Sequence record: SRR31156797_3317
Strand: one strand, 5' to 3'
Length of the DNA: 54,117 nt
Part shown: piece after piece, positions 7,115 to 31,481 of the stretch
How positions within the stretch are numbered: the stretch's first letter is position 1
How the letters are laid out: each line of letters opens with the position of its first letter
Translations under genes and position numbers: made by a program
Notes under the pieces: model-generated
What the model was told of the DNA's origin: nothing
Databases searched by the model: none
What the model saw: the letters and a program-made list of their open reading frames with translations, nothing else

Positions 7115-8011
7115 TTGGAAATATCAATTCAAAACCTTAATAAGGTTTATGGACATAACTTTCAGGCATTAAAAGAGGTGAATCTTCAAATAGAATCTGG
7201 AATGTTTGGTTTGTTAGGCCCTAACGGAGCCGGAAAATCTACACTTATGAAAATATTGGTCACCTTACTTAAACCTACAAGTGGTGATATTTTGATAAAT
7301 GGTAAAGCCTTAAGTGAGAATAGAAAAGAAGTGAGAGCCATGATGGGTTACCTTCCTCAGGATTTTAGATTTTTTGCAAAGCTTAAAACCTACGAATTTT
7401 TAGACTATGCAGCATCACTAGCAGGTATAAGCAGCAGAAAAGAAAGAAAAAATGAGGTGGAACGTTTATTGGAAGAGGTTGGCTTGTTTGAAGTACGAAA
7501 CCGTTTTGCCAATAAGCTTTCCGGAGGTATGAAAAGACGTTTGGGGATAGCACAGGCTATTGTAGGTGAACCAAAAATTGTGATTGTAGATGAGCCAACA
7601 ACCGGCTTAGATCCTGAAGAAAGAATCCGTTTTAGAAATATACTGGCTGATCTAAGTCAAAAAGATGTCATCATTATATTATCCACACACATTGTAGGTG
7701 ATATTTCCAGCACTTGCCAGCAAATGGCATTGTTAAATAATGGTCAGATTGGATTTACAGGTAGTCCGCATGAATTTATAGAATTATCCCGGGGAAAAGT
7801 ATGGAGAACGCATGTTGGATATGATTTAATGGAAGAATTCAAACAAAAATATCCGGTGATTACAACAATACCTGATACTGATGGATACGAGGTGGAATTA
7901 ATTGCTCCTTCTGCAAGCGATTTTCAGGGCGAAAATATTGATCCAAACCTGGAGCATGCTTATGTGTATTTCATGGAATATGAATCAGAAAAACTATTAA
8001 CTCATGCATAA
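7115..8011 (+). CDS. ABC-2-type transporter ATP-binding protein
   Basis: Walker A GPNGAGKS, signature LSGGMKRR, Walker B IVIVDEP, H-loop STH. Start re-called to TTG 7115 because the ORF-track start (7013) lies inside the terminator. Confidence 0.93.
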   Translation: MEISIQNLNKVYGHNFQALKEVNLQIESGMFGLLGPNGAGKSTLMKILVTLLKPTSGDILINGKALSENRKEVRAMMGYLPQDFRFFAKLKTYEFLDYAASLAGISSRKERKNEVERLLEEVGLFEVRNRFANKLSGGMKRRLGIAQAIVGEPKIVIVDEPTTGLDPEERIRFRNILADLSQKDVIIILSTHIVGDISSTCQQMALLNNGQIGFTGSPHEFIELSRGKVWRTHVGYDLMEEFKQKYPVITTIPDTDGYEVELIAPSASDFQGENIDPNLEHAYVYFMEYESEKLLTHA

Positions 8012-11000
8012 TCCACTTTTAACTGTAGCTCGATTCGAGATAAAAACTTTATTACGCAGTTGGTTTTTTCGTATTTTCTCAGCCATAGTAGTCGCATTTG
8101 TGCTGTTTTTTAATATTATGGCATCCACAGACATTGGACGTGCTGGCTGGCCTGATAGAATGTTGATTGGAGGTTTACCTTACATGAATCTATGGGTTTT
8201 AAATATAGTGCAAGCTGTTATTGCCGTGTTTTTATCCGCTGACTTTTTAAGCAGAGATAAAAAACTGGATACAACTGAAGTGATATATGTGCGTAATATG
8301 TCAAACCTTCAATATGTATTTGGCAAAACACTTGGGATATTAACTGTTTTTAGTGGGTTAAACCTACTTGTTTTATTGTTTACTCTTATCATTAATTTTA
8401 TAAGTCCGGATGCTGGTTTTAGTGCCATTACATATGTATTGTATCCACTGATTATTTCATTTCCTACACTGTTATTCATATTAGGAATCTCATTTTTTGT
8501 AATGTTATTGGTCAAAAACCAGGCAATAACATTTATTCTGGTTTTGGGCTTTATTGCAACATCAATTTTCTATTTAAAAGGTAAACATTTTGGTATTTGG
8601 GATTTTATCACCTTTAATACGCCTTTAGCTTATTCTTCATACGTCAATTTTTCAGATACTTTTCAGCTCCTTGCCATAAGAGGTGGTTATTTATTATTGG
8701 GACTGGGTTTAATATTTCTGACTGTTTATAAATTACCTAGGTTATCTCAAGGGAGCTTAAGTAAAAAAATACTATTAGTTCCTGCTTTAGTGAGTATTTT
8801 GTTGGGCACAGGTATGATTGGGCTTTATGTGTTTCAAAAAGCAAACAATGAAAAGCAAATTCAAGACCTGGTAAAAATAGAGAAAGAATTACCTATTAGT
8901 GCAGGATATTCTATAAATCATTATGATATTCAAATAAAGCATTCAGGAAGTAATGTGGAAGGTGAAATGATATATAAAGTGCAATCCGAAGAAAAAAATC
9001 TCCCTTCTGAATTGCGTTTCTTCTTTAATAGTGGTTTAAAGGTCAAATCAGTAACCATCAGCGACAATCCTGTTCAATTTAATCATGAATTGAATATACT
9101 GTCAATGAAAGGTATTCCAGATAAGAGTGCTTCTGTTGAAATTCATATTACTTTTAAAGGGAAACCTGTTAATGATTTGGCTTATTTTGATTTAAAGCAA
9201 GAGGTGAGGGAAAGTGATCATCGATTAGATCCATTGTTAGCAGGAAAAAAAGTATGCTTTCTGACATCAAATTACCTTCTTTTTACCAAAGAGTCCTTAT
9301 GGTATCCAATAGTGGCAGAAAGAAATGCTTTTAGAACGCAACGTTTTTTCACCTATTCACTCAAGATAAATTCAGAAAACGATTTAAATTATATTGCTCA
9401 GGGAAATAAGACATTAAAGGATGGATGGACTATATTCGAAGGAGATGTGCCTTACGCAAAAATAAGTTTGGCAGGCGGAAAGTATCAAACGAAATCGATA
9501 ATGGTGGATAGTGTTGAATACTGTATCAACGCAAAAGCCGATAATTATTTCTTCGCAAAATACTTTGAGAATATTAATGATACACTTCCTTTCTTAATCA
9601 GAACGCTAAAAGGTGATTTTGAACGTAAATTAGGGGTTAAGTATCCATACAAAAGATTGCAGTTTGTAGAAGTACCCGTTCATTTTTATTCACATTATCG
9701 AAGTTGGTCTTTATGCAATGAAAATACACATCCGGAAATGATTTTTGTTCCTGAATTTGGGGCAGGTATTCGAAGCTTCAATTTGGCCAATAGAAACAGC
9801 AACCGGGGCGGTCCGGGTAGAGGTAGAGACAATGATTCAGAAGAGTTATTACCCAAAGAAAAGGAAAGTAATCTGTTTATGGATCTAGTGGGTAATGTTT
9901 TTGCACAACCGGAGCGTGGGCGTAGATTTTTTAGGGGTAATGATGATTTAGGACGTACCTTATCCGACTGGAGTGCTTATTCTGTATTTCCACTGTTTTA
10001 TAATTATGCGTATGGATTGGAAGAAAAAGATTTACCATTTTTTAATATGTGTTTGGAATGGCATATGTTAAACCGAATTCAATCTACCAATTCGCGTTTT
10101 GGTCGTTTGTCATCAACCGATAAATCTATCTTATTTTTAAATAAAAATAGCGGAAGTATTAAGGAGTTAGCAGATCGGGATGATTTGGATGTGAGTATTG
10201 CTGATATTATCGTTACAACCGGTAGTAATATGTTTGCTACAGCACAATCTCGTATAGGTAGCGATAAGTTTGATTCCTACATTGACAGTTTATTAGCTGC
10301 AAATGTTTTATCAACCATAGAGGATAAGGCCATTATAAAGCTGATTGAAGGAAAGGAGAGGAGTGAATTGTCGCTAAATACAGATGTTGATTTAAAGCTG
10401 CCAGCATATACTTTCGGAGAATATAAAATTTATGAGTTTAAAGATGACAATAGAGAGCGCTATTATATCAGTATTGAAGTTGCGAATAATGGTGAAGCCG
10501 ATGGTATCATTAAAGCCTCAGTAATGGGCGGAAGAGGTGGTAGAGGAGGAGGACGTGGTCCTGGCGGAGGTCGTATGTCAACGGCTCACGAGGAAAACTA
10601 TCTGATCAACCAAGGGGAGCAAGTTAAAATAGGAATTATAGTGGATGATGCACCTCGTATGCTTTCTGTTCATACTTATTTATCGAAGAATATCCCTTCA
10701 GATACTCGTTTTTCATTAGCTGATTTTACAAAAGCTCCTAAAGGTTTTAAAGCAGAAACGGGTATCATTTATTTAGATAAGGAAATTAAATTTATTTCTG
10801 ATAATGAAGTAGTTGTAGATAATGAGGATGAAGGTTTCTCAGTAGTTAATACTTCTGGTAGAAAAACCCTGAAGGAAATGATTTCTATTAATCGGGACGA
10901 AGAAAGTGAAGATAATGGATCAGAGTATAAAAGCCTACGCTTCTTTAGACCCGATGCACGTTGGACACCCGTGTTAGATGCAATGGCCTTCGGAGATTAT

Positions 11001-11339
11001 ACCAAATCATTCATGTATAAAAAAAGTGGTGACGGAGCTGCCAAAGCAAGGTTTGCTGCACAATTGCAGGCTACGGGCAGGTATAATGTGTACGCCAGAA
11101 TTCCATCCTCACGAATGGGTAATTTTAGAAACCAGGATCCGCAAGATGCGAGCTATACTTTTATGGTGCACCACGATGATGGTGACGACGAAGTTGTTGT
11201 GCCCATTGAATCAGAATCACCGGAATGGTTTTTATTAGGTGAGTTTTATTTCTCCGACGGAGAAGCTGTGGTAGAATTATCGGATAAAACAACTAAAAGT
11301 GTGGTCATTGCAGATGCCGTTAAATGGGTTAAACTATAA
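8004..11339 (+). CDS. ABC-2 permease fused to an M1-aminopeptidase-like region and a C-terminal golvesin/xanthan-lyase-like beta domain
   Basis: About 7 N-terminal TM helices (ARFEIKTLLRS...GKTLG), a long soluble region, and C-terminal VVVDNEDEGF...GRYNVY...WFLLGEFYF...VIADAVKWVK. Confidence 0.7.
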   Translation: MHNPLLTVARFEIKTLLRSWFFRIFSAIVVAFVLFFNIMASTDIGRAGWPDRMLIGGLPYMNLWVLNIVQAVIAVFLSADFLSRDKKLDTTEVIYVRNMSNLQYVFGKTLGILTVFSGLNLLVLLFTLIINFISPDAGFSAITYVLYPLIISFPTLLFILGISFFVMLLVKNQAITFILVLGFIATSIFYLKGKHFGIWDFITFNTPLAYSSYVNFSDTFQLLAIRGGYLLLGLGLIFLTVYKLPRLSQGSLSKKILLVPALVSILLGTGMIGLYVFQKANNEKQIQDLVKIEKELPISAGYSINHYDIQIKHSGSNVEGEMIYKVQSEEKNLPSELRFFFNSGLKVKSVTISDNPVQFNHELNILSMKGIPDKSASVEIHITFKGKPVNDLAYFDLKQEVRESDHRLDPLLAGKKVCFLTSNYLLFTKESLWYPIVAERNAFRTQRFFTYSLKINSENDLNYIAQGNKTLKDGWTIFEGDVPYAKISLAGGKYQTKSIMVDSVEYCINAKADNYFFAKYFENINDTLPFLIRTLKGDFERKLGVKYPYKRLQFVEVPVHFYSHYRSWSLCNENTHPEMIFVPEFGAGIRSFNLANRNSNRGGPGRGRDNDSEELLPKEKESNLFMDLVGNVFAQPERGRRFFRGNDDLGRTLSDWSAYSVFPLFYNYAYGLEEKDLPFFNMCLEWHMLNRIQSTNSRFGRLSSTDKSILFLNKNSGSIKELADRDDLDVSIADIIVTTGSNMFATAQSRIGSDKFDSYIDSLLAANVLSTIEDKAIIKLIEGKERSELSLNTDVDLKLPAYTFGEYKIYEFKDDNRERYYISIEVANNGEADGIIKASVMGGRGGRGGGRGPGGGRMSTAHEENYLINQGEQVKIGIIVDDAPRMLSVHTYLSKNIPSDTRFSLADFTKAPKGFKAETGIIYLDKEIKFISDNEVVVDNEDEGFSVVNTSGRKTLKEMISINRDEESEDNGSEYKSLRFFRPDARWTPVLDAMAFGDYTKSFMYKKSGDGAAKARFAAQLQATGRYNVYARIPSSRMGNFRNQDPQDASYTFMVHHDDGDDEVVVPIESESPEWFLLGEFYFSDGEAVVELSDKTTKSVVIADAVKWVKL

Positions 11340-17127: not shown

Positions 17128-20100
17128 ATGAAGTTTATTATACATAGAAAAGTACTGATAAGTATGTTGTTTGTGGCATTAAGCCTTTTGGGTATAGTGT
17201 CTTACAACTATTTACCGGTAGAATTATATCCCAATACCGAGCTTCCGGTTTTGTTTGTGCAAATAGCAGGTCAAACAGAATCAGATCCTAAATATGTGGA
17301 GCAGGAAGCTGTTATTCCCATGGAAGGAGTGGTGGGAACTATTGAGGGTATTGAGAAGATAGAGTCGAGAGTAAATCCGGGAAGAGCTACCATAAGCATT
17401 TATTTAACCAAGGAGGTGGATTTTAAATACGCCTATTTAAAACTGGCTGAAAAGGTTGAAGCTTCGCAACATTTATTGCCGGATGACTATCAGGCAACGG
17501 TGATGAAGATTGATATGGATCAATTTACCAATCAGTTTATGTCTATTCAGGTTTTGGGCGAAGGAGACGTAGACAGAGTACGTGCCATTACCGATGAAAA
17601 AATTACGGATAAGATTGAAAGTATCGATGGTGTAGCCGGGGTCGAAGTATATGGAGGTAGGCAAAAAACAGTCGAAATCACGCTGAACGAAGACAAGCTG
17701 GAAGGTATGGGAATTACTACCTCGGAGGTGCGTCGGAAAATACAAAACAACGAGGGAAGCAAAACTTTTGCCGGACGCGTTGAAGATCAGGGACAGTATC
17801 TGTTTGTAAATGTGGAAGGGGAATATAACAATATCGGAGATTTAGAAAATGTAGTGATTAAGGAAGAAGGGCCGGTTTTATTAAAGGATATTGCAGATAT
17901 TGTTTTTGGAGTTAAAGAACAAACCAGTTATAGCCGTGTAAATGCCAAAGAGTCGGTGACCATTAACGTTTCCCGGGAATCTACGGTCAATCAAATTGAA
18001 CTCTCAGGTAGAATAAAGGAAGAGGTTGAAAAGCTAAATAATGAGTTGCAATCGAGTGGCGTTGAGATTACCATTACGTCTAACTCGGCAGAAACCATGG
18101 AAGAAAATATTTCATCCATTATTAATCTGGCCTTAATAGGAAGTATATTGGCTGTATTTATTCTCTGGATTTTCCTGAAGAATATTCCGTTGGTGTCATT
18201 GGTGATGCTGTCAATTCCTATTTCAGTATTTTCAGCTTTTAACTTGTTTTACGCCTTTAATATATCCATCAATACCTTTACCCTTATCGGTATTGCTCTG
18301 GCAGTTGGAATGCTGATTGATAACAGTATTGTGGTGTTGGAGAATATTTACCGAGTAGCCTCTACCAACACAGATCGGGATAAGGCTGTTATAATGGGAA
18401 CGCGGGAAGTATGGCGTGCCATACTGGCTGCAACTCTAACTACTATAACAGTATTTCTACCATTTGCTTTTTCATCGAATATGTTGTTTAAGCTGGTGGC
18501 CAAAAATATCAGTGTTTCCATAGTAGGAACCTTATTAATTTCATTGGCTGTTGCGTTGCTGCTAATTCCAATGATGACACATAGCGTGTTGTGGTACGGA
18601 AAGTTAGATGTTCAAAAACGCTTACGCAGATTGCCCCTTCACCATAGAATGGTGCAGTCTTATATGGTGTTGTTAAAAAGTGCCCTAAGGGTTCCTGCCC
18701 GAACTATTAATATTGCCGTATTGGTATTTTTTGCAAGTGTAGCCATTAGCCTGCTGGTGAGTATTTCGGTAAGTCAGGAAGTTGAAACACCGGAGTTTGT
18801 CGTGGATATTGAACGACCATCCGGTTCTACTTTAGAAAGTACAGATATTATGGTTCGCGAATTAGAAAAACGAATAGGTGATATCTCAGAAGGAGACCAG
18901 CTTATAAGTCAGGTATACGAAGAAAAAGCGAGTTTAACGCTCAAATTAAAAGAGGACTATAAAAAGGAATCAAAAAGAACTTTAGGTGAAATTAAAGCCG
19001 ATGTTCAGGCGCGCTTATATGGTTTTGATGATTCTGAAATAAATCTGGAACAAGGCGGAACTACTTCAGGAGGAAACAGTGGTTTTGGTGATAACCCGGG
19101 TTTAATGTTGATGGGCATGTTTGGAATTGGTCAGCAACAAGAAAGTGTAGTGATAAAAGGAGAGGACTTTGATAAAATGCTGCTGTTGGCCGAAGATATC
19201 AAATACATATTAGAGGATAATATGGAGGATGAATTAAGATCGGTAAGGGTAAGTGCAGGCTTTCCTCGTCCCGAAGTTCATTTGGAATTTGATCCCGGCT
19301 TGATGAGTTTATATCAGGTAACGCCGCAGAGTGTAATGGTTGAGTTGGCTACATTTCGTACACAGGTTTCTTCAGGTGGAACTTTAAAACTGGATAATCA
19401 GGAATATGATATTGTGATGAAAGCTGAAAATCCGAAACCTGAAGAAGAGATTCCTGCCAAAACATATGAAGATCTCCAAAAACTAAATGTAATTTCCACC
19501 AGCGGTTCGTTGGTGGCATTGCGTAATTTTTCAGATATCATATACTCTAGTGGTCGTGCTGAAATTTTACGGGTTAATCAGCAAAAGGAAATAACCATTA
19601 GCTATAGTTTCAATGATGAAATCAATGATTCAAAATCGTTATTGGAACAAGCCCGGTTGGATGTGGATAATCTGGTTGAAGAAATAAACCTGCCTTCAGG
19701 TACAGCTGTTGAAGTATTGCACGAAGAGGATATGTTTAGTGAATTCTATTTTTTAATTGGAATGGCTTTCATTTTAATATTAATGATTCTGGCTTCAGTA
19801 TTTGAGTCGTTTGTAGCACCATTCGTGATGTTGTTTTCTATTCCTCTGGCAGCTATTGGTTCGCTTTTAGGTTTAATTTTTTCTGGTAATTCACTTATCC
19901 AACTCAATACCTTAATTGGTTTTTTAATTCTTTTGGGTATTGTAGTCAACAATGGAATTATTTTAATTGATTATGCCAATATTCTGCGTAGGCAAGGGAT
20001 GAAACATTCCAGAGCACTGATACAGGCTGGAATTTCTCGTGTTCGTCCTATTTTAATAACGGCTTCTACAACCATTATTGCCATGTTACCTTTGGCCTTA

Positions 20101-21876
20101 GGTAAATCAGAATATGTAGGTAGTTTGGGTGCACCTTTTGCCATTACAGTAGTGGGTGGACTATTGGTGAGTACCTTGTTAACCTTGGTATTTATCCCCA
20201 CTTTTAGTTTTGGACTGGAAAATGCTTTAAAATGGATTAAATCCTTAAACTGGATTTTAAAATCTAGTATTTATACAGCATGGACAATAGGAACCTTGTG
20301 TGTTTACTATGTATTTAACCACAGTTTTATGTGGCAGTTATTGGAGTATTTTATTGTGCTGGTAGGTGTGCCTGCCGTGGTATATTTTGTCAGAACCAGT
20401 TTACGTCAGGCGCAAACCAAATTAATTAAAGATGATGAGCCAATTACTATCAGACTACAGAACGTAGTGAAAATATACGACCGTGATAGTCGCTTTTTAA
20501 GAGAGTGGAAAACGGCCATGCGATATGGTTTTGGAGAGCGAAAAAGCAAAGGAGTAAAGCATTATCAGGAAGGCTTGGTTTGGCAAATTCCAATGATGGG
20601 CTTTTTATTATGGATGACCTGGAGTTATCTGGAAAGCTCATTATGGAACTTTATATTTATGTTGAGCTCCTATTTTATCTTTCTTTCTTATTTGTCATAT
20701 CTGAGCTCGTGGCCGGATAAAAAAGGAAGGAGCCAACGTTGGTTTGGAGACAAAAGCTGGCTGTTCAAAACCATTTTATTTGGCTATCCTTTAATCACCT
20801 TGTTGACCTATGCCTTTAAGTTCGAAGCAAAGGCTTCAGCTATAGTATGGGGCGTTTTATGGTACAGTTGTATTTATATTTATGTGACAGGTAAAAAGCT
20901 CTTGACTCAAAATATTAATGTAGAAAGGTTAAAAGGACGTTTTGCCGGAATGCGTCGTACCTGGTATATTATCGTTCGTTCTATTCCTGTTATTGGAAAA
21001 CAAAAACAACCTTTTAAAGCTGTTAAAGGAGTTTCCTTAACCATGAAAAGCGGTATGATTGGTTTGCTTGGCCCAAATGGTGCAGGTAAAACCACAATTA
21101 TGCGAATTATTTGTGGTATCCTGGATCAGAGCTACGGAAAAGTATTTGTAAATGGGCTTGATTCGTTAAAATACAGAGAAGAACTACAGGGATTGATCGG
21201 TTATTTGCCACAGGAATTTGGTTCTTATGAAAACATGACATCCTATGAATTTTTGGATTATATGGCCTTGTTAAAAGGTTTGCGTCATCGCGAAGAACGC
21301 CATAGTCGGGTAGAATATGTATTAAAAGCGGTGCATATGTGGGAGCGAAAAGACAATGCCATTGGTTCTTTTTCAGGAGGAATGAAACAGCGTATAGGTA
21401 TTGCACAAATTATGCTGCATTTACCGCGTATTTTGGTGGTGGATGAGCCTACTGCAGGATTGGATCCACGAGAAAGAATTCGTTTTCGTAACTTACTGGT
21501 TGAATTAAGCCGCGATAGAATTGTAATTTTCTCTACACATATTATTGAGGATATTTCCAGCTCATGTAACCAGGTAGCTGTTATGAAAAAAGGTGACCTG
21601 AAATATTGGGGTAAACCAGCAGAGTTATCTGCCATCACACAAGGTAAAGTATGGACGTTTGAAGTACCTGCTTCGGAATTTGAAAGCGTTAATAAACAAT
21701 ACCAGGTGGTGCATCATATTGGAAATGGAACTAATATTAAAGTAAGGGTGTTAGCCAATGAAAAGCCTGTTGAAGAAGCAGAACAAGTACATTCCAGTCT
21801 GGAAGATTCCTACTTATGGTTATTGCGTTCGGAAGATATCAATATGAAAGTAAAGGTAAATGCGGAGGTGATGTAA
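17128..21876 (+). CDS. RND permease (subunit 2) fused to extra TM helices and a C-terminal ABC ATPase
   Basis: First ~1030 aa are RND ([22 protein letters not shown]). C-terminus has [23 protein letters not shown] and STH in one uninterrupted 1582-aa ORF. Confidence 0.92.
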   Translation: [1582 protein letters not shown]

Positions 21877-21997: not shown

Positions 21998-22351
21998 ATG
22001 CTAAAATATAATTTTGCACGTGTATTTAGAGCCAGAGGAATAGAGCGTCCATTTTCATTTCTAAAAAAAGCTGGTTTCTCCGATAACTTTGCCACAAAAA
22101 TTAAAAAGAACCAGGTAAAAAGGCTGGAGCTAAAAGAATTAGAAAAGTTATGTATGCTTCTTAAATGTACACCCAACGATGTGTTGGAATGGGTTCCTGA
22201 TACACATACAGAGATAGAGGAAACGCACCCTTTAAGCCAAATGAAGAAACCAGAAAATGATGTGGATTTTGTAAAAACACTCAACGAAATTCCTTTGGGT
22301 AAACTAGAGGAGTTAGAACGTATTTTAAAAGAACATTTAGGTAAAAAGTAA
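21998..22351 (+). CDS. XRE/Cro-C1-type helix-turn-helix protein
   Basis: RVFRARGIERPFSFLKKAGFS...LEKLCMLLKCTPNDVLEW pattern (HTH_26-like). Confidence 0.8.
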   Translation: MLKYNFARVFRARGIERPFSFLKKAGFSDNFATKIKKNQVKRLELKELEKLCMLLKCTPNDVLEWVPDTHTEIEETHPLSQMKKPENDVDFVKTLNEIPLGKLEELERILKEHLGKK

Positions 22352-22352
22352 C

Positions 22353-23045
22353 ATGAAGAATATTCTCCAGATCATTAAATACAATCTAAAAATTATATTT
22401 GGAAACCGCTTTGTTTATTTCTTAGGGGCTTCTATTATTTTTTATTTGCTGATTACTTCTATTGCCCTGTTTTCTGATGATTCGATTGGTGTAGATGATG
22501 TGTATTATCAACTTATTTTTCCGGGTATTTTATTAATGTTTTTTCCCACCAGTTTTGGAATCCAAAATGATGAAGACGCCCGAATTCTGGAAATTTTGTT
22601 TGGAATTCCTAATTATAGATACAAAGTATGGTTAGTGCGCTTATCTATTATTTTTTTAATGGTATTTGTTATTATAACCATTTTGGCTTTTCTTAATAAT
22701 TTTGTATTGGTGGAATTACCGGTATTTGAAATGGGAGCTCAATTAATTGTGGTGCTGGTTTTATTTGGAACACTTGGGTTTTTATTCAGTACCATGGTCA
22801 AAAATGGTAGTGGTACAGCCGTAATTATGGTGGTAGTTGGACTTGCCCTATGGTTTCTACATGGTTTTAACGGAGAGTCTAAATGGAATGTATTCTTAAA
22901 TCCTTTTGCAGCACCTAATAATATGAGTGAATCATTATACCAAGCTGCTTTATTTCAAAACCGATTAATCATTTTAACAGTTGCCGTAGCTGCTATTTTA
23001 TGGGGCTTGTTTAATTTACAGCGAAGAGAGAAGTTTATTAAGTAG
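22353..23045 (+). CDS. ABC-2-type permease (about 6 TM)
   Basis: IIKYNLKIIF start; DEDARILEILF coupling-helix-like segment; FLNPF; hydrophobic profile. Confidence 0.7.
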   Translation: MKNILQIIKYNLKIIFGNRFVYFLGASIIFYLLITSIALFSDDSIGVDDVYYQLIFPGILLMFFPTSFGIQNDEDARILEILFGIPNYRYKVWLVRLSIIFLMVFVIITILAFLNNFVLVELPVFEMGAQLIVVLVLFGTLGFLFSTMVKNGSGTAVIMVVVGLALWFLHGFNGESKWNVFLNPFAAPNNMSESLYQAALFQNRLIILTVAVAAILWGLFNLQRREKFIK

Positions 23046-24069: not shown

Positions 24070-24432
24070 TTAACCTGCCAACTTTAAAACTTTAATTACA
24101 TCTTTAAATTCACTTAACAATACAGGCTTGTGCAAATAAGCAGTTGCTCCGTACAATAAACAAGACTCAATAGTGTTTTGATCTGCATCACCAGATACAA
24201 CTACTACAGGTATACCCATCCACTCCTCTTCTAAATCTTTCAGAACTTCAAAGCCATCTTTTACAGGCATATGAAGGTCTAATAAAACTAAGTCCGGCCT
24301 TTCTTTAACTATTGTTTTCCACCCCTCTAGTCCATTGTCTGCTTCAAGAATATCCAGATTGTAGTTTTTCAACATTCCTTTCAACATTTTACGACTGTCA
24401 ATCGCATCATCTACAATTAATACCTTTTTCAT
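24070..24432 (-). CDS. Single-domain response regulator (CheY-like receiver)
   Basis: KVLIVDD, PDLVLLDLHMPVKDG, IPVVVVSG and YLHKP; start re-called to ATG 24432. Confidence 0.92.
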   Translation of the reverse strand: MKKVLIVDDAIDSRKMLKGMLKNYNLDILEADNGLEGWKTIVKERPDLVLLDLHMPVKDGFEVLKDLEEEWMGIPVVVVSGDADQNTIESCLLYGATAYLHKPVLLSEFKDVIKVLKLAG

Positions 24433-24848
24433 GGATATTTGTTTTAGGTTATACACTTAATAATTATAACGAAAAAACCACTTTAAAAGATTTCAGTTGT
24501 TGACTAATTAGTGTTTTAAGGTTGGAAAATGACATTATTAAGAGATAAACATATACTTGATATTACTTCCACACCTAGTATGAGTATAGTATCTATCATC
24601 TATATAATAATCATGATTTTAGTGATCTTACGCTTCGGTTATAAATAATTTTGTATTGAAAATAATATTGTCTATTTTAAAGGTGTAATCATTTTTAATC
24701 AAACTATTTATACCTATGAAAGACACCTTAAACATTGCGTTTTCTTGTTCACATACCTTTTTAGTGCCAGACGATAAAGTCTCAGGTACAAACAACACCA
24801 GAACGTTTTATAAAGATGCTATTCTACAACAAACAAATAGCTATGCTA

Positions 24849-25061
24849 TTGTAATAGCGGAGGATTTACAAGTTAAAGCGGAGGTTAAAAAAACTCTAGC
24901 GGGCAATTTTCAAATACCAGCGGGCAATAATTATACGCTAGCGGAGTGTTTATACCTGTGTAAATCATCCGCTATTGCAAAAAAAACATCCGCAGGAAAA
25001 ATAAATTGCCCGCATGAAAGAGCTGAACATCCGCTAGAGAATAGAAATAGGCCGCTAGGAT
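24849..25061. repeat. Bipartite 21-bp-periodic array: 5 forward AGCGG units followed by 5 inverted CCGC(T/A) units
   Basis: AGCGG at 24856, 24877, 24898, 24919 and 24940; CCGCW at 24969, 24990, 25010, 25031 and 25052; symmetric about ~24956. Confidence 0.9.
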
Positions 25062-25188
25062 GTTGGCTATCTTAAAATAATTATGAAAAATGCTTCCTGC
25101 GTGTATTATATATTCAATACACAAATAATAAGGTAGGTCTTTTGCCTATCGTCTATCCATTTTTTTTAAACTTTTAAAATCTCAAATT

Positions 25189-25884
25189 ATGTCGAAAAAT
25201 GGCAGAAATTTTAGAGTTAGTGATTCTAATTTAATTAGTCATGCCGAGGTTGTGGCTATTAGTTTACCCACAGACATTGGCCAGATGAATGGTTTTGATA
25301 GTACTATTGATGAAAGCTATCCTCAAACCATAACTCATGCAATTAGTGAGGTAAAGGCAATTAAAACTGATCAGGTGATTATAGACGAAATGACAGAGTT
25401 AACACAGACGGTTAACGATGCCTTGGATGACTGTAATACTTGTTACAAAACCATTGCATTTTTTGTGCGCAAGGCTTTTGCTGATAACGTGGCTGTGCAA
25501 AATCAGATGGGATTAAACGATATTGCTAAGGTTCGTAATAATGTTCCTAAAATGGTCATGTTTATGAACGATGTGTGTAAGGTGGTTGAAACTTACCGCG
25601 ATCAACTGATTACAGCAGGTTGTAACCCTGCAGTTTTAGACAGTATTGAACAAAAAGGGGAGGCTTTAAAGGAAAGTGATACGGCACAAGAGCTATTTAA
25701 AAAAGAGCGTGGTGTGATTACACAAACCCGCGTTGAAAAACTGAACGAATTATATGATTTATTAAAACCAATAAGTCAGATTGCAGATATTATTTATGCC
25801 GATGACCCGGCTAAAATGGCGGTGTATACGCTGCCCAAACCAAAGTCTTCTACCAATAGCGATACCGATTTAATTGTATCGTAA
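25189..25884 (+). CDS. Hypothetical all-alpha protein (231 aa), no recognised catalytic motif
   Basis: Clean ORF with an AT-rich leader; amphipathic helical pattern; no signal peptide or TM. Confidence 0.85.
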   Translation: MSKNGRNFRVSDSNLISHAEVVAISLPTDIGQMNGFDSTIDESYPQTITHAISEVKAIKTDQVIIDEMTELTQTVNDALDDCNTCYKTIAFFVRKAFADNVAVQNQMGLNDIAKVRNNVPKMVMFMNDVCKVVETYRDQLITAGCNPAVLDSIEQKGEALKESDTAQELFKKERGVITQTRVEKLNELYDLLKPISQIADIIYADDPAKMAVYTLPKPKSSTNSDTDLIVS

Positions 25885-26163
25885 TTACCCCTTTGAATAA
25901 AGAGAATGTTCAGATTCCAGATATTTTTGTTTAGCTCGCTGATTATTGAAATGTAATTGTATTTTCTTGCGATCTCTACGAGAAAACTATTTGATGGGCA
26001 TTCTCTTTGTTATAATTAACTATAACATAAAAAGCATTTATTATTCATGGAAGTAGCATAAAGGCTACAGACTCATAAGAAGAAGGAGGTATGGAGTGAA
26101 TAAAGTTACAGTTACTATATGCATAAGAATTATATTACATTTGCATTGATAAAAGTACATTTT

Positions 26164-26523
26164 ATGAGAGAAGAGGAGGCTAATAAAAACAATCTTCATT
26201 TATGTGAAAAATGCCTGAATAAGAGTCTTGATATTCATAAAGGGTTAATTTGTAGATTACATAGTCAAAAGCCTAATTTCAAAGGTAGTTGTATAGAATT
26301 TGTTCAAAAGAATACCTCCCATAAGAAAGTTGCTTCAAGAATAAAGAGAGGTGAAAATGAAAGTCTTTATACTAGATTAGATAATCTTGAAAGTAGTAAA
26401 ATAAAATATAAAATGGATTCTCAACCAGCAGAGGAATTTTCAATGTGGGATGATATAAATCAAATATCTTATATTATTTTGATCATTTTGTTAGGCATAG
26501 TTGGAATACTATTTTTTTTCTGA
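26164..26523 (+). CDS. Hypothetical membrane-anchored protein with an N-terminal four-Cys motif
   Basis: CEKC...GLICRL...PNFKGSC, then a C-terminal TM helix. Start re-called to 26164 because a -7 box TACATTTG lies at 26136-26143. Confidence 0.7.
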   Translation: MREEEANKNNLHLCEKCLNKSLDIHKGLICRLHSQKPNFKGSCIEFVQKNTSHKKVASRIKRGENESLYTRLDNLESSKIKYKMDSQPAEEFSMWDDINQISYIILIILLGIVGILFFF

Positions 26524-30159: not shown

Positions 30160-30263
30160 TTGCCCAATCTAGATGAAACGAGCTAAGAGAAGGTTTCTAT
30201 TACATAATGAAATGAGTAAAAGGTCGAGTTCCATGTGGCAATTGAAAAACAAATGATAGACAC

Positions 30264-31481
30264 ATGAAAGAACTATTAATTTTTATTTCGGTAATGAGCT
30301 GTTTATTACCGATTGGATATTTTACTTTAAAGTGGTTTTTTAAAGGTTCTATAATTTTTTTACTTTCCTGGTTTAACCTTCTTATTATATATTTTTCTTC
30401 CATACTGTATTTTTCTGTTGGTATATTGGGAATTATGCATTTATTCTGGGCAATTCCTGTGGCATCTATACTTACAGGTGGCTTGTTTTTTATCATTAAA
30501 AGAAAAGTACAACAACCTTTATTAGTTGCTGTTGATCATTTAAATAATATAGCCGAAGGTGATTTAAACATAGCCAATGTAAAGGAAATGGAAAGTCAAA
30601 GTAATGAATTAGGTTTATTAAATGAGAATATTCAGAAATTGGTATTTGTATTAAAGCATTTGGTTAAAGAGGTAAACAAAAGTTCCAGAAAATTATCAAA
30701 GTCAAGCAAACAATTAGCTGAAAATACACGGAATATGGCTAAAGATTCAACTCAACATGCCAATTCCAGCGAACTTCTATCAGCCAATATGGAAGAAATA
30801 GCCAGTGCTGTAGCTGCCAATGCCGATAATGCGAAAATGGGAAATGTTTTGGCACAAAATAACAGAGATAGCTTATCGGAATTATTTGAACTTTCATCGC
30901 ACATTACCAAAGTAGTGGATGAAATTGCATCCAAATCAGAAGAGATTGATGGTATAGCTAAACACACTAATATACTTGCTTTAAATGCAGCGGTAGAAGC
31001 AGCTAAATCGGGTGAAGCAGGAAGAGGTTTTGCAGTAGTTGCCAGCGAAGTAAGAAGGTTGGCTGAATATACTACGAATACGGCGATGGCCATAGGGAAA
31101 TTAAGTAACGAAAGTAAAGAGTTGGTGGCTAAATCCTCCTATCTATTTGAAGAAATGTTACCTCAAATAGAAAAATCATCAGACATGGTGGCCGATATCA
31201 CTTCTGCCAGTCATCACCAAAAAGAAAGTTTGAATAATGTGAATGATACCATTAAGGACTTAAACCAGGTAACTCAGCGCAATGTATTAACGGCCGAAGA
31301 AATTGCTGTTACTTCGGAGCAGTTACAAATGCTTTCGGAGCGTTTAAAAGATTCACTTCAGTTCTTTAAAGTTTCTGATGATTCCATTAAGGAAAGAATG
31401 CAAAAGGCCAGGAAACTGAAAATACCAGTAGAAATACAAACATCTGTAGAAGAAGAAAGAACGGAACTAGTAGATGCTTAA
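30264..31481 (+). CDS. Methyl-accepting chemotaxis protein (membrane-embedded N-terminus, HAMP, MCP signal domain)
   Basis: Hairpin-tip signature [48 protein letters not shown]...NELGLL. Confidence 0.95.

Follow-up and report, generated by a model that had tools for sequence, protein, structure and literature searches.

A non-coding array of short units, repeated at a strict period of 21 bp, is found at positions 24849-25061 of a 54,117 nt stretch of DNA (the window), where it is inherited together with a gene for a 231-aa protein downstream and is accompanied by no conserved partner gene. From sequence comparisons, the array can be read, tentatively and with a probability of roughly 0.4, as a phased lattice of DNA binding sites that may be cognate to the adjacent PQLLE-like protein and may control the expression of that protein's gene. 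The window is chromosomal-looking Bacteroidota DNA of ~33% G+C, the genes of which encode RND/ABC efflux components, a DUF4154 protein, a pentapeptide-repeat protein and glycosyltransferases, with a receiver-only response regulator at 24070-24456 on the minus strand. The locus comprises the following features.

24552-26127, no strand: presence/absence segment with the upstream box, array and gene, delimited by comparison with the nearest genome (G001).
24716-25075, plus strand: 119-aa ORF spanning the array, judged spurious (no Pfam match; no consistent frame in homologous arrays).
24737-24757, plus strand: upstream box, in the window version GCGTTTTCTTGTTCACATACC, with a consensus of approximately (C)G-TTCTTTG-A-Y-R-T.
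24849-24955, plus strand: distal arm of five 21 bp units, each consisting of (T)AGCGG, 2-3 variable bases, an A/T block and a variable remainder.
24939-24974, no strand: dyad formed by the innermost head-to-head pair of units, located from the inverted repeat and the core positions.
24956-25061, minus strand: proximal arm of five units, with the same consensus inverted, located from the CCGC positions.
25101-25122, plus strand: small inverted repeat, GTGTATT-N8-AATACAC, between the array and the start codon.
25189-25884, plus strand: 231-aa acidic protein, a distant relative of the PQLLE family by its match to NCBIfam NF052641.

In the distal arm AGCGG starts at 24856, 24877, 24898, 24919 and 24940, each step being exactly 21 bp, and the five inverted units that follow have CCGC on the plus strand starting at 24969, 24990, 25010, 25031 and 25052, with steps of 21, 20, 21 and 21 bp. 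The innermost pair forms an inverted repeat with arms at 24939-24955 and 24958-24974, and the two sets meet at approximately 24956. This is the arrangement described in the original prediction, made from this sequence alone, of five forward and five inverted cores symmetric about that point. It had further held that such a pattern was very unlikely to arise by chance, which is borne out by the motif AGCGG-N16-AGCGG: this occurs five times in the 54-kb window, always within the array, against an expectation of 0.01 in shuffled sequence, and none of 100 shuffles reached five. Its exclusion of CRISPR is likewise sound, the array having a 6-12 bp core within a 21 bp unit rather than 25-37 nt repeats with unique spacers of similar length. 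The array went unreported by Tandem Repeats Finder at a score of 30, because its units are just ~50-70% alike. It ends 127 nt before the start of the 231-aa ORF.

Similar arrays are found beside homologues of the gene, which were matched at E<=1e-3 in 22 of the 133 genomes that represent the same family. A 4-mer recurring at least four times at steps of 20-22 bp was detected in 12 of 18 upstream regions, the window included. When self-match lags of 8-49 were scored, the top lag was 20, 21, 41 or 42 in 29 of 32 upstream regions (again with the window among them), compared with 12 of 138 control windows taken from the same loci; at a score of at least 0.5 the same lags were top in 28 of the 32 and in none of the 138. 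The exceptions to the former count were L047, where a lag of 14 was marginally ahead and the array was confirmed by eye; L065, where the gene is truncated; and L073, a distant relative. The 32 regions come from a second locus set, of 34 named loci, together with the window, and this set is not independent of the first because their genomes are partly shared. Examination of homologue flanks for 21 bp arrays, which had been suggested as a check, is therefore clearly positive, and the proposed partnership of array and gene is upheld both by these 29 loci and by the absence of the two from the nearest genome. In the latter both flanks are 94-98% identical to the window and 355 unrelated bases stand in place of 24552-26127; array and gene are thus present or absent together. 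Their order and distance are kept across phyla, in chromosomal contexts that differ from locus to locus. Neighbouring genes within ~6 kb showed no conservation in 32 loci, nor did small ORFs inside the module.

The period is kept with little latitude. Among 211 neighbour spacings in 32 loci, identified with a profile-based unit caller, 195 were of 21 bp, 16 of 20 bp and none of 22 bp. Homologues in Ignavibacteriota, which were part of the lag comparison at 27-29% protein identity, are preceded by 9-11 nearly identical direct units of 21 bp, and in the wider PQLLE family a lag of 21 or 42 was top or tied for top upstream of the gene, at a score of at least 0.56, in 13 of 24 loci. Many genes of the wider PQLLE superfamily, in both Bacteroidota and Ignavibacteriota, have arrays of 21/42 bp upstream, and many loci of the curated NF052641 family share this feature. 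For instance, among the further PQLLE paralogues of G001, clear arrays lie upstream of two of five and weak ones upstream of two more.

This regularity is accompanied by core sequences that are wholly different between loci. In the first locus set, a AGCGGAGGATTT core is found in the window, L013, L015, L017 and L020, the core of L014 is CAGT-N7-TTAT and that of L016 is TCAGAAGA-N3-TTTACA, with further cores at other loci. Each 21 nt unit is bipartite: variable bases separate two conserved blocks that lie ~10-11 bp from each other, and the two variable stretches of the unit are ~3-8 nt long. In many arrays two alternating unit variants give rise to a 42 bp super-period. Units within one array are often identical; L106 has 12 units of 42 bp, with up to 100% identity at a lag of 42 over ~500 bp. 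In approximately half of the arrays two sets of units meet head to head, the remainder being direct-only, and the arm lengths recorded were 5+5 (the window), 5+3, 6+3, 5+5, 7+4, 4+3, 4+7, 1+9, 1+8, 1+7 and 13+2, with L090 having two inverted and 13 direct units. Across the dyad, the distance from core to core is 28 bp in the window, L013, L015 and L020, and 27 bp in L017. Direct arrays are found in both orientations relative to the gene, taking a shared CGCT(A/G) element as the anchor, and the distance from the end of the array to the ATG is ~80-300 bp.

The only element conserved in sequence rather than in period is a box that precedes the array by 20-200 bp and the ATG by ~400-640 nt across loci (the GTTCTTTG box lies ~450 nt upstream of the ATG). 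An exact TTCTTTG is in position in 16 of 30 loci, against a background of 0.25 per kb, and is replaced by TTTCTTG in the window (24741-24747) and in L043. This box is a candidate promoter or operator element. Hairpins of varying sequence, recognised by eye, are found between array and ATG at many loci, in a place similar to that of the small inverted repeat of the window, and some of those in L057 and L060 are followed by T-runs. As a separate observation, L093 has three tandem 126 bp units ~870-618 bp upstream of the gene, each with a CCG-TTCTTTG box and all upstream of its 21/42-bp array.

The gene had been considered an orphan, a description that cannot be retained: 54 relatives were found, and a profile search matched 2382 cluster representatives (at 50% identity) at E<=1e-3, 415 of them at E<=1e-30, with a known function for none of the 2382. 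Named relatives are Marinilabiliales such as Carboxylicivirga, Labilibacter and Labilibaculum. The match to NCBIfam NF052641, the 'PQLLE family', extends over residues 61-210 (E 4e-14), and its 52.8 bits lie under the curated cut-off of 80, which places the window protein in a sister subfamily, homologous to the curated family and outside it. The PQLLE family proper was present in 19 of 401 sampled Bacteroidota genomes, and no paper on it was found in the literature. Searches of Pfam, PHROGs, PADLOC and PDB sequences with the 231-aa protein returned nothing informative, and homodimer prediction for it gave no support. For two relatives, confident Atlas models (pLDDT 0.85 and 0.91) resemble uncharacterised clusters in Gemmatimonadota, Myxococcota and Chloroflexota, and by these models the protein is apparently helical and looks like a helical bundle. 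The PQLLE family is also multi-copy, with seven matches over the cut-off in each of G001 and G174, two of the G001 copies being 1.9 kb apart. Some relatives are longer: P0093, P0097, P0116 and P0170 (305-399 aa) have one or two C-terminal CarboxypepD_reg (transthyretin-like) beta-sandwich domains, and others of ~310-330 aa have a C-terminal extension matching no assigned family.

If the array is a lattice of binding sites, it would act in cis as DNA and, with the downstream gene, form a self-contained two-part module. As the unit steps are exactly two helical turns, all sites would lie on the same face of the helix, where the PQLLE-like protein might bind them cooperatively, nucleating at the head-to-head dyad and spreading from there through the two arms. 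Some ~210 bp immediately before the gene's own promoter region would then be covered by the nucleoprotein complex, which could set expression of the gene through feedback or act on it as a switch. The module encodes a single candidate reader, the adjacent protein; other genes and small ORFs are not conserved within ~6 kb. The history of the cores points in the same direction. The AGCGGAGGATTT core is kept in five lineages, at 48-61% protein identity, with the spacers randomised; in the protein tree the AGCGGAGGATTT two-arm type (window, L043, L046, L048 and L059) falls in both halves of a 12-row clade (support 99/95), interleaved with other array types, and the core is therefore old. Its maintenance while the spacers drift argues for a sequence-specific reader. 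Furthermore, the paralogues L044 and L053, from one genome bin, have different cores, suggesting that the reader is module-specific and that a general host factor is unlikely.

A number of observations run counter to this reading. The protein has no recognised DNA- or nucleic acid-binding domain by Pfam, NCBIfam or PDB sequence search; it is acidic, with a pI of 4.73 (the family median being 5.15); the sole named family with a TM of at least 0.5 in both directions in the Atlas comparison was LemA, a weak match at TM 0.52; and the CarboxypepD_reg domains of some relatives are more typical of envelope or secreted proteins. No column of the protein alignment tracked the array type, in a comparison of 12 sequences with low power, and L044, despite its wholly different core, differs from the invariant columns of the AGCGG group at only seven, mostly conservative, positions. 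Upstream of several PQLLE paralogues the array is missing or weak, and in the window outside the array, further AGCGGAGGATTT-like sites amounted to chance-level matches. Between array and ATG, the canonical Bacteroidota -7 box, TAnnTTTG, was found in none of 26 loci, and a search for sigma-54 promoters between array and gene gave no relevant match.

The original prediction had left two options for the array, a phased binding platform with sites two helical turns apart or a structured RNA of ~200 nt forming a long rod. The former fits best, as a period of 21/20 bp is kept amid sequence change, units are bipartite and their orientation is free; the rod is without support. The window array does fold as a rod (dG -71.9, z -4.4). 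Over nine two-arm loci, however, folding energy showed no consistent strand bias; mirror-paired units exceed non-mirror pairs only slightly in likeness, at 0.545 against 0.508 (p 0.03, with units that are not independent of one another); and many arrays have unequal arms or are direct-only. Rfam gave no match at E<=1 in 24300-26300 and none at the gathering score in the whole window, and pairing of the array with the translation start reached z<-2 in none of 25 loci. A long RNA hairpin or rod was consequently rejected, and DNA is favoured over RNA more generally, because the spacing holds to two turns irrespective of sequence, the conserved blocks within a unit are one turn apart and the orientation of units is free, the last of these suiting DNA sites better than a co-transcribed RNA.

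The array might nevertheless act as RNA in another form, by analogy with ToxI/ToxN or TIGR-Tas, as a repeat leader or non-coding transcript whose units bind, sequester or are processed by the protein, transcription perhaps starting from the conserved GTTCTTTG box; this is considered unlikely. The units of type III toxin-antitoxin systems (ToxIN, CptIN and TenpIN) are ~35-45 nt long and all in the orientation of the gene, and are followed by a terminator, the toxin being an endoribonuclease of the ToxN/AbiQ type. These systems share with the present loci a repeat array directly upstream of a single protein gene, in which unit length is specific to the family and sequence is variable. By contrast, the window has five units in each orientation, no terminator-like site was found in 24400-26200, and the protein matches no ToxN/AbiQ endoribonuclease family in Pfam, PADLOC or NCBIfam. 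TIGR arrays have units of ~36 nt, in which two 8-12 nt repeats alternate with two variable 9 nt spacers and which contain box C/D nucleotides, and their Tas proteins carry a Nop domain (PMC12045711). Their layout of a long array of very short period, unconserved in sequence between loci and in some cases perhaps upstream, beside a solo and mostly alpha-helical protein, is that observed here (PMC12045711; bioRxiv 10.64898/2026.09.09.750476). The arrays described here differ from those of TIGR in their 21 bp unit, in the single repeat type of the window, and in having units that are often identical and arms that may be inverted; identical units are not diverse guides, and the two variable stretches of ~3-8 nt contrast with TIGR spacers of 9 nt. 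By sequence, Nop (PF01798) matched neither the window protein at E<=0.01 nor the 47 members of set A2 at E<=1, no Tas or Nop chain was among the PDB sequence matches, and no other RNA-binding family was matched; box C/D motifs were looked for by eye. The conserved box, if a promoter, and the hairpins with T-runs between array and gene would suit transcription of the array, as would strong gene-strand folds in some direct arrays, which exceed those of shuffled sequences by far in L064 (z -13) and L075 (z -8.1). However, it is the antisense strand that folds better in L054, L055, L057 and L069, the box has no consensus RNA structure (0 pairs around the GTTCTTTG box), and a period that stays at 21/20 while sequences are unrelated is readily explained by the geometry of DNA but not by RNA. 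As an observation in its own right, in L064 and L067 (Prolixibacter bellariivorans) each 21 nt unit can form, on the gene strand only, a 5-6 bp hairpin with G-U pairs (GUCCGC/GUGGGC), and their sense-strand folds are very stable (z -13 and -3.7).

More improbable is that no dedicated binder exists and that the array serves as a contingency locus or repeat-number rheostat, where slippage or unequal exchange would change the number of 21 bp units between the upstream element and the core promoter, and thereby tune or switch the expression of a variable, multi-copy protein family. Strong homogenisation of many arrays, such as that of L106, would be explained, as would the differing unit numbers of close relatives (1+8 in L049 and 10 in L050; 10 in L054 and 11 in L055), and a period of whole turns would hold flanking elements in phase upon gain or loss of copies; the seven copies of the family in each of two genomes, and its variable C-termini, which include Ig-like domains, are also as expected. 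Yet such a mechanism gives no role to the dyad and the two-arm layout, and the retention of a specific AGCGGAGGATTT core amid drifting spacers points to a sequence-specific reader. The intrinsic curvature of the window array was not above that of random windows, which is weak evidence from a wedge-model estimate, and promoter-repeat rheostats are not known to keep one unit length across phyla. There is very little likelihood that the array belongs, as a working part or as a remnant, to an element that moves or replicates, either as origin iterons or as abutting transposon-end sites of the Tn7/Mu type. Such an origin would account for the iteron-like geometry, with units of ~21 bp in direct and inverted sets, for the segment being an indel relative to the nearest genome, and for the patchy distribution among the 133 genomes of the family. 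Against this, the surroundings hold no conserved Rep, transposase, integrase or partition gene, no relative was matched in phage records, plasmid records or IMG/VR contigs, the contexts are chromosomal and locus-specific, and array and gene retain their order and distance across phyla. Least credible of all is that the periodicity reflects a protein of 7-residue repeats, encoded by the ORF at 24716-25075 or its counterparts. One plus-strand frame is indeed open across the whole window array, and 21 is a multiple of 3; the 119-aa ORF, however, stays open because the repeat unit has no stops in that frame, and it has no Pfam match. In a set of 14 loci, none of the frames on either strand stayed open consistently through the arrays: in L016 and L020 no frame covers 60% of the array, and the window frame reading GCG-GAG is closed by TAA in L015. 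Moreover, steps of 20 bp are present among the unit spacings, the inverted arm could not encode the same repeat, and the similarities between ORFs of different loci just mirror the shared repeat DNA. Coding repeats of this type, which had been named among the findings that would refute the original prediction, were thus tested and rejected.

Returning to the proposed lattice of DNA sites, the closest known systems also include iterons and partition centromeres. Iterons bound by Rep_3 initiators (F, P1, R6K and pPS10) are bipartite units of ~19-22 bp, spaced at about two turns and read from one helix face; they are arranged in direct sets with inverted copies near the gene of the binder, and their site sequence diverges fast between relatives. 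The present arrays resemble them in having direct sites on the 17-22 bp unit scale, with the same near-exclusive spacings of 21 bp (195/211) and 20 bp (16/211), but the protein belongs to no Rep_3 or winged-helix family by Pfam, NCBIfam or PDB sequence search, being acidic and helical-looking instead, and the loci are chromosomal and multi-copy, with no plasmid or phage match and no indication of a replication function. The centromeres of type II and type III partition systems, parC-ParR and tubC-TubR, consist of two phased sets of short repeats ahead of the operon, to which a small, autoregulating adaptor binds cooperatively. The window array similarly has two phased sets upstream of a gene; it differs in its period of 21 bp, as opposed to 10-12 bp, in a protein of no ribbon-helix-helix or HTH family, and in the absence of ParM, TubZ, ParA or any other conserved neighbour within ~6 kb in 32 loci. 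By its defining features the module is thus no iteron origin, partition centromere, type III toxin-antitoxin system or CRISPR, and by its repeat structure it does not qualify as TIGR-Tas. A literature search at the level of listings and abstracts found no description of it, the supplementary locus tables for TIGR being a place that could include such loci, and the combination of protein and repeat suggests an undescribed module.

It is conceivable, at somewhat less than even odds, that the PQLLE superfamily, of ~220-aa helical proteins, and its 21 bp phased arrays represent a new class of autonomous two-part protein-nucleic acid modules, in which a protein of new fold would assemble on a self-encoded lattice of DNA or RNA with fixed pitch and fast sequence turnover. 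Such a class would have a biology of its own, unrelated to that of iterons, centromeres, CRISPR, TIGR or type III toxin-antitoxin systems, for example in heritable switching of expression, as a platform for positioning or as an element akin to defence systems, and would be widespread in Bacteroidota and Ignavibacteriota, with relatives by predicted structure in Gemmatimonadota, Myxococcota and Chloroflexota. Were protein and array a cognate pair, a large unannotated family, with 2382 representatives and up to seven copies per genome, would come with a built-in and readily recognised nucleic acid partner, through which proteins so far bearing no more than a motif-based name could be approached directly by experiment. 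The pair would, in addition, be a new case of a repeat lattice of fixed pitch whose sequence evolves freely, which bears on the evolution of cooperative nucleoprotein assemblies and their specificity. For annotation, a self-match lag of 21 bp upstream of a gene is a simple signature, which current repeat, CRISPR and RNA finders miss.

Elsewhere in the window, a number of other features were recorded. The plus-strand ORF at 17128-21876 encodes 1582 aa, comprising a full AcrB/RND permease (residues 2-1026) and a C-terminal ABC-transporter ATPase domain (residues 1300-1443); this fusion is unusual, and comes after a normal AcrB gene in the same cluster. A plus-strand gene at 8004-11339, flanked by genes for an ABC ATPase and for outer-membrane efflux, encodes a 1111-aa protein whose sole Pfam match is a C-terminal Golvesin_C domain. 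On the plus strand at 21998-23045, the stop codon of a Cro/C1-type HTH gene (117 aa) overlaps a 230-aa ORF with no family match, and the two may constitute a two-gene cassette. Finally, the stretches at ~30168-30283 and 30945-31067 have many dispersed matches in G001 at 71-88% identity, with at least 13 further ones among the matches listed, which suggests a dispersed repeat or a repeated domain.
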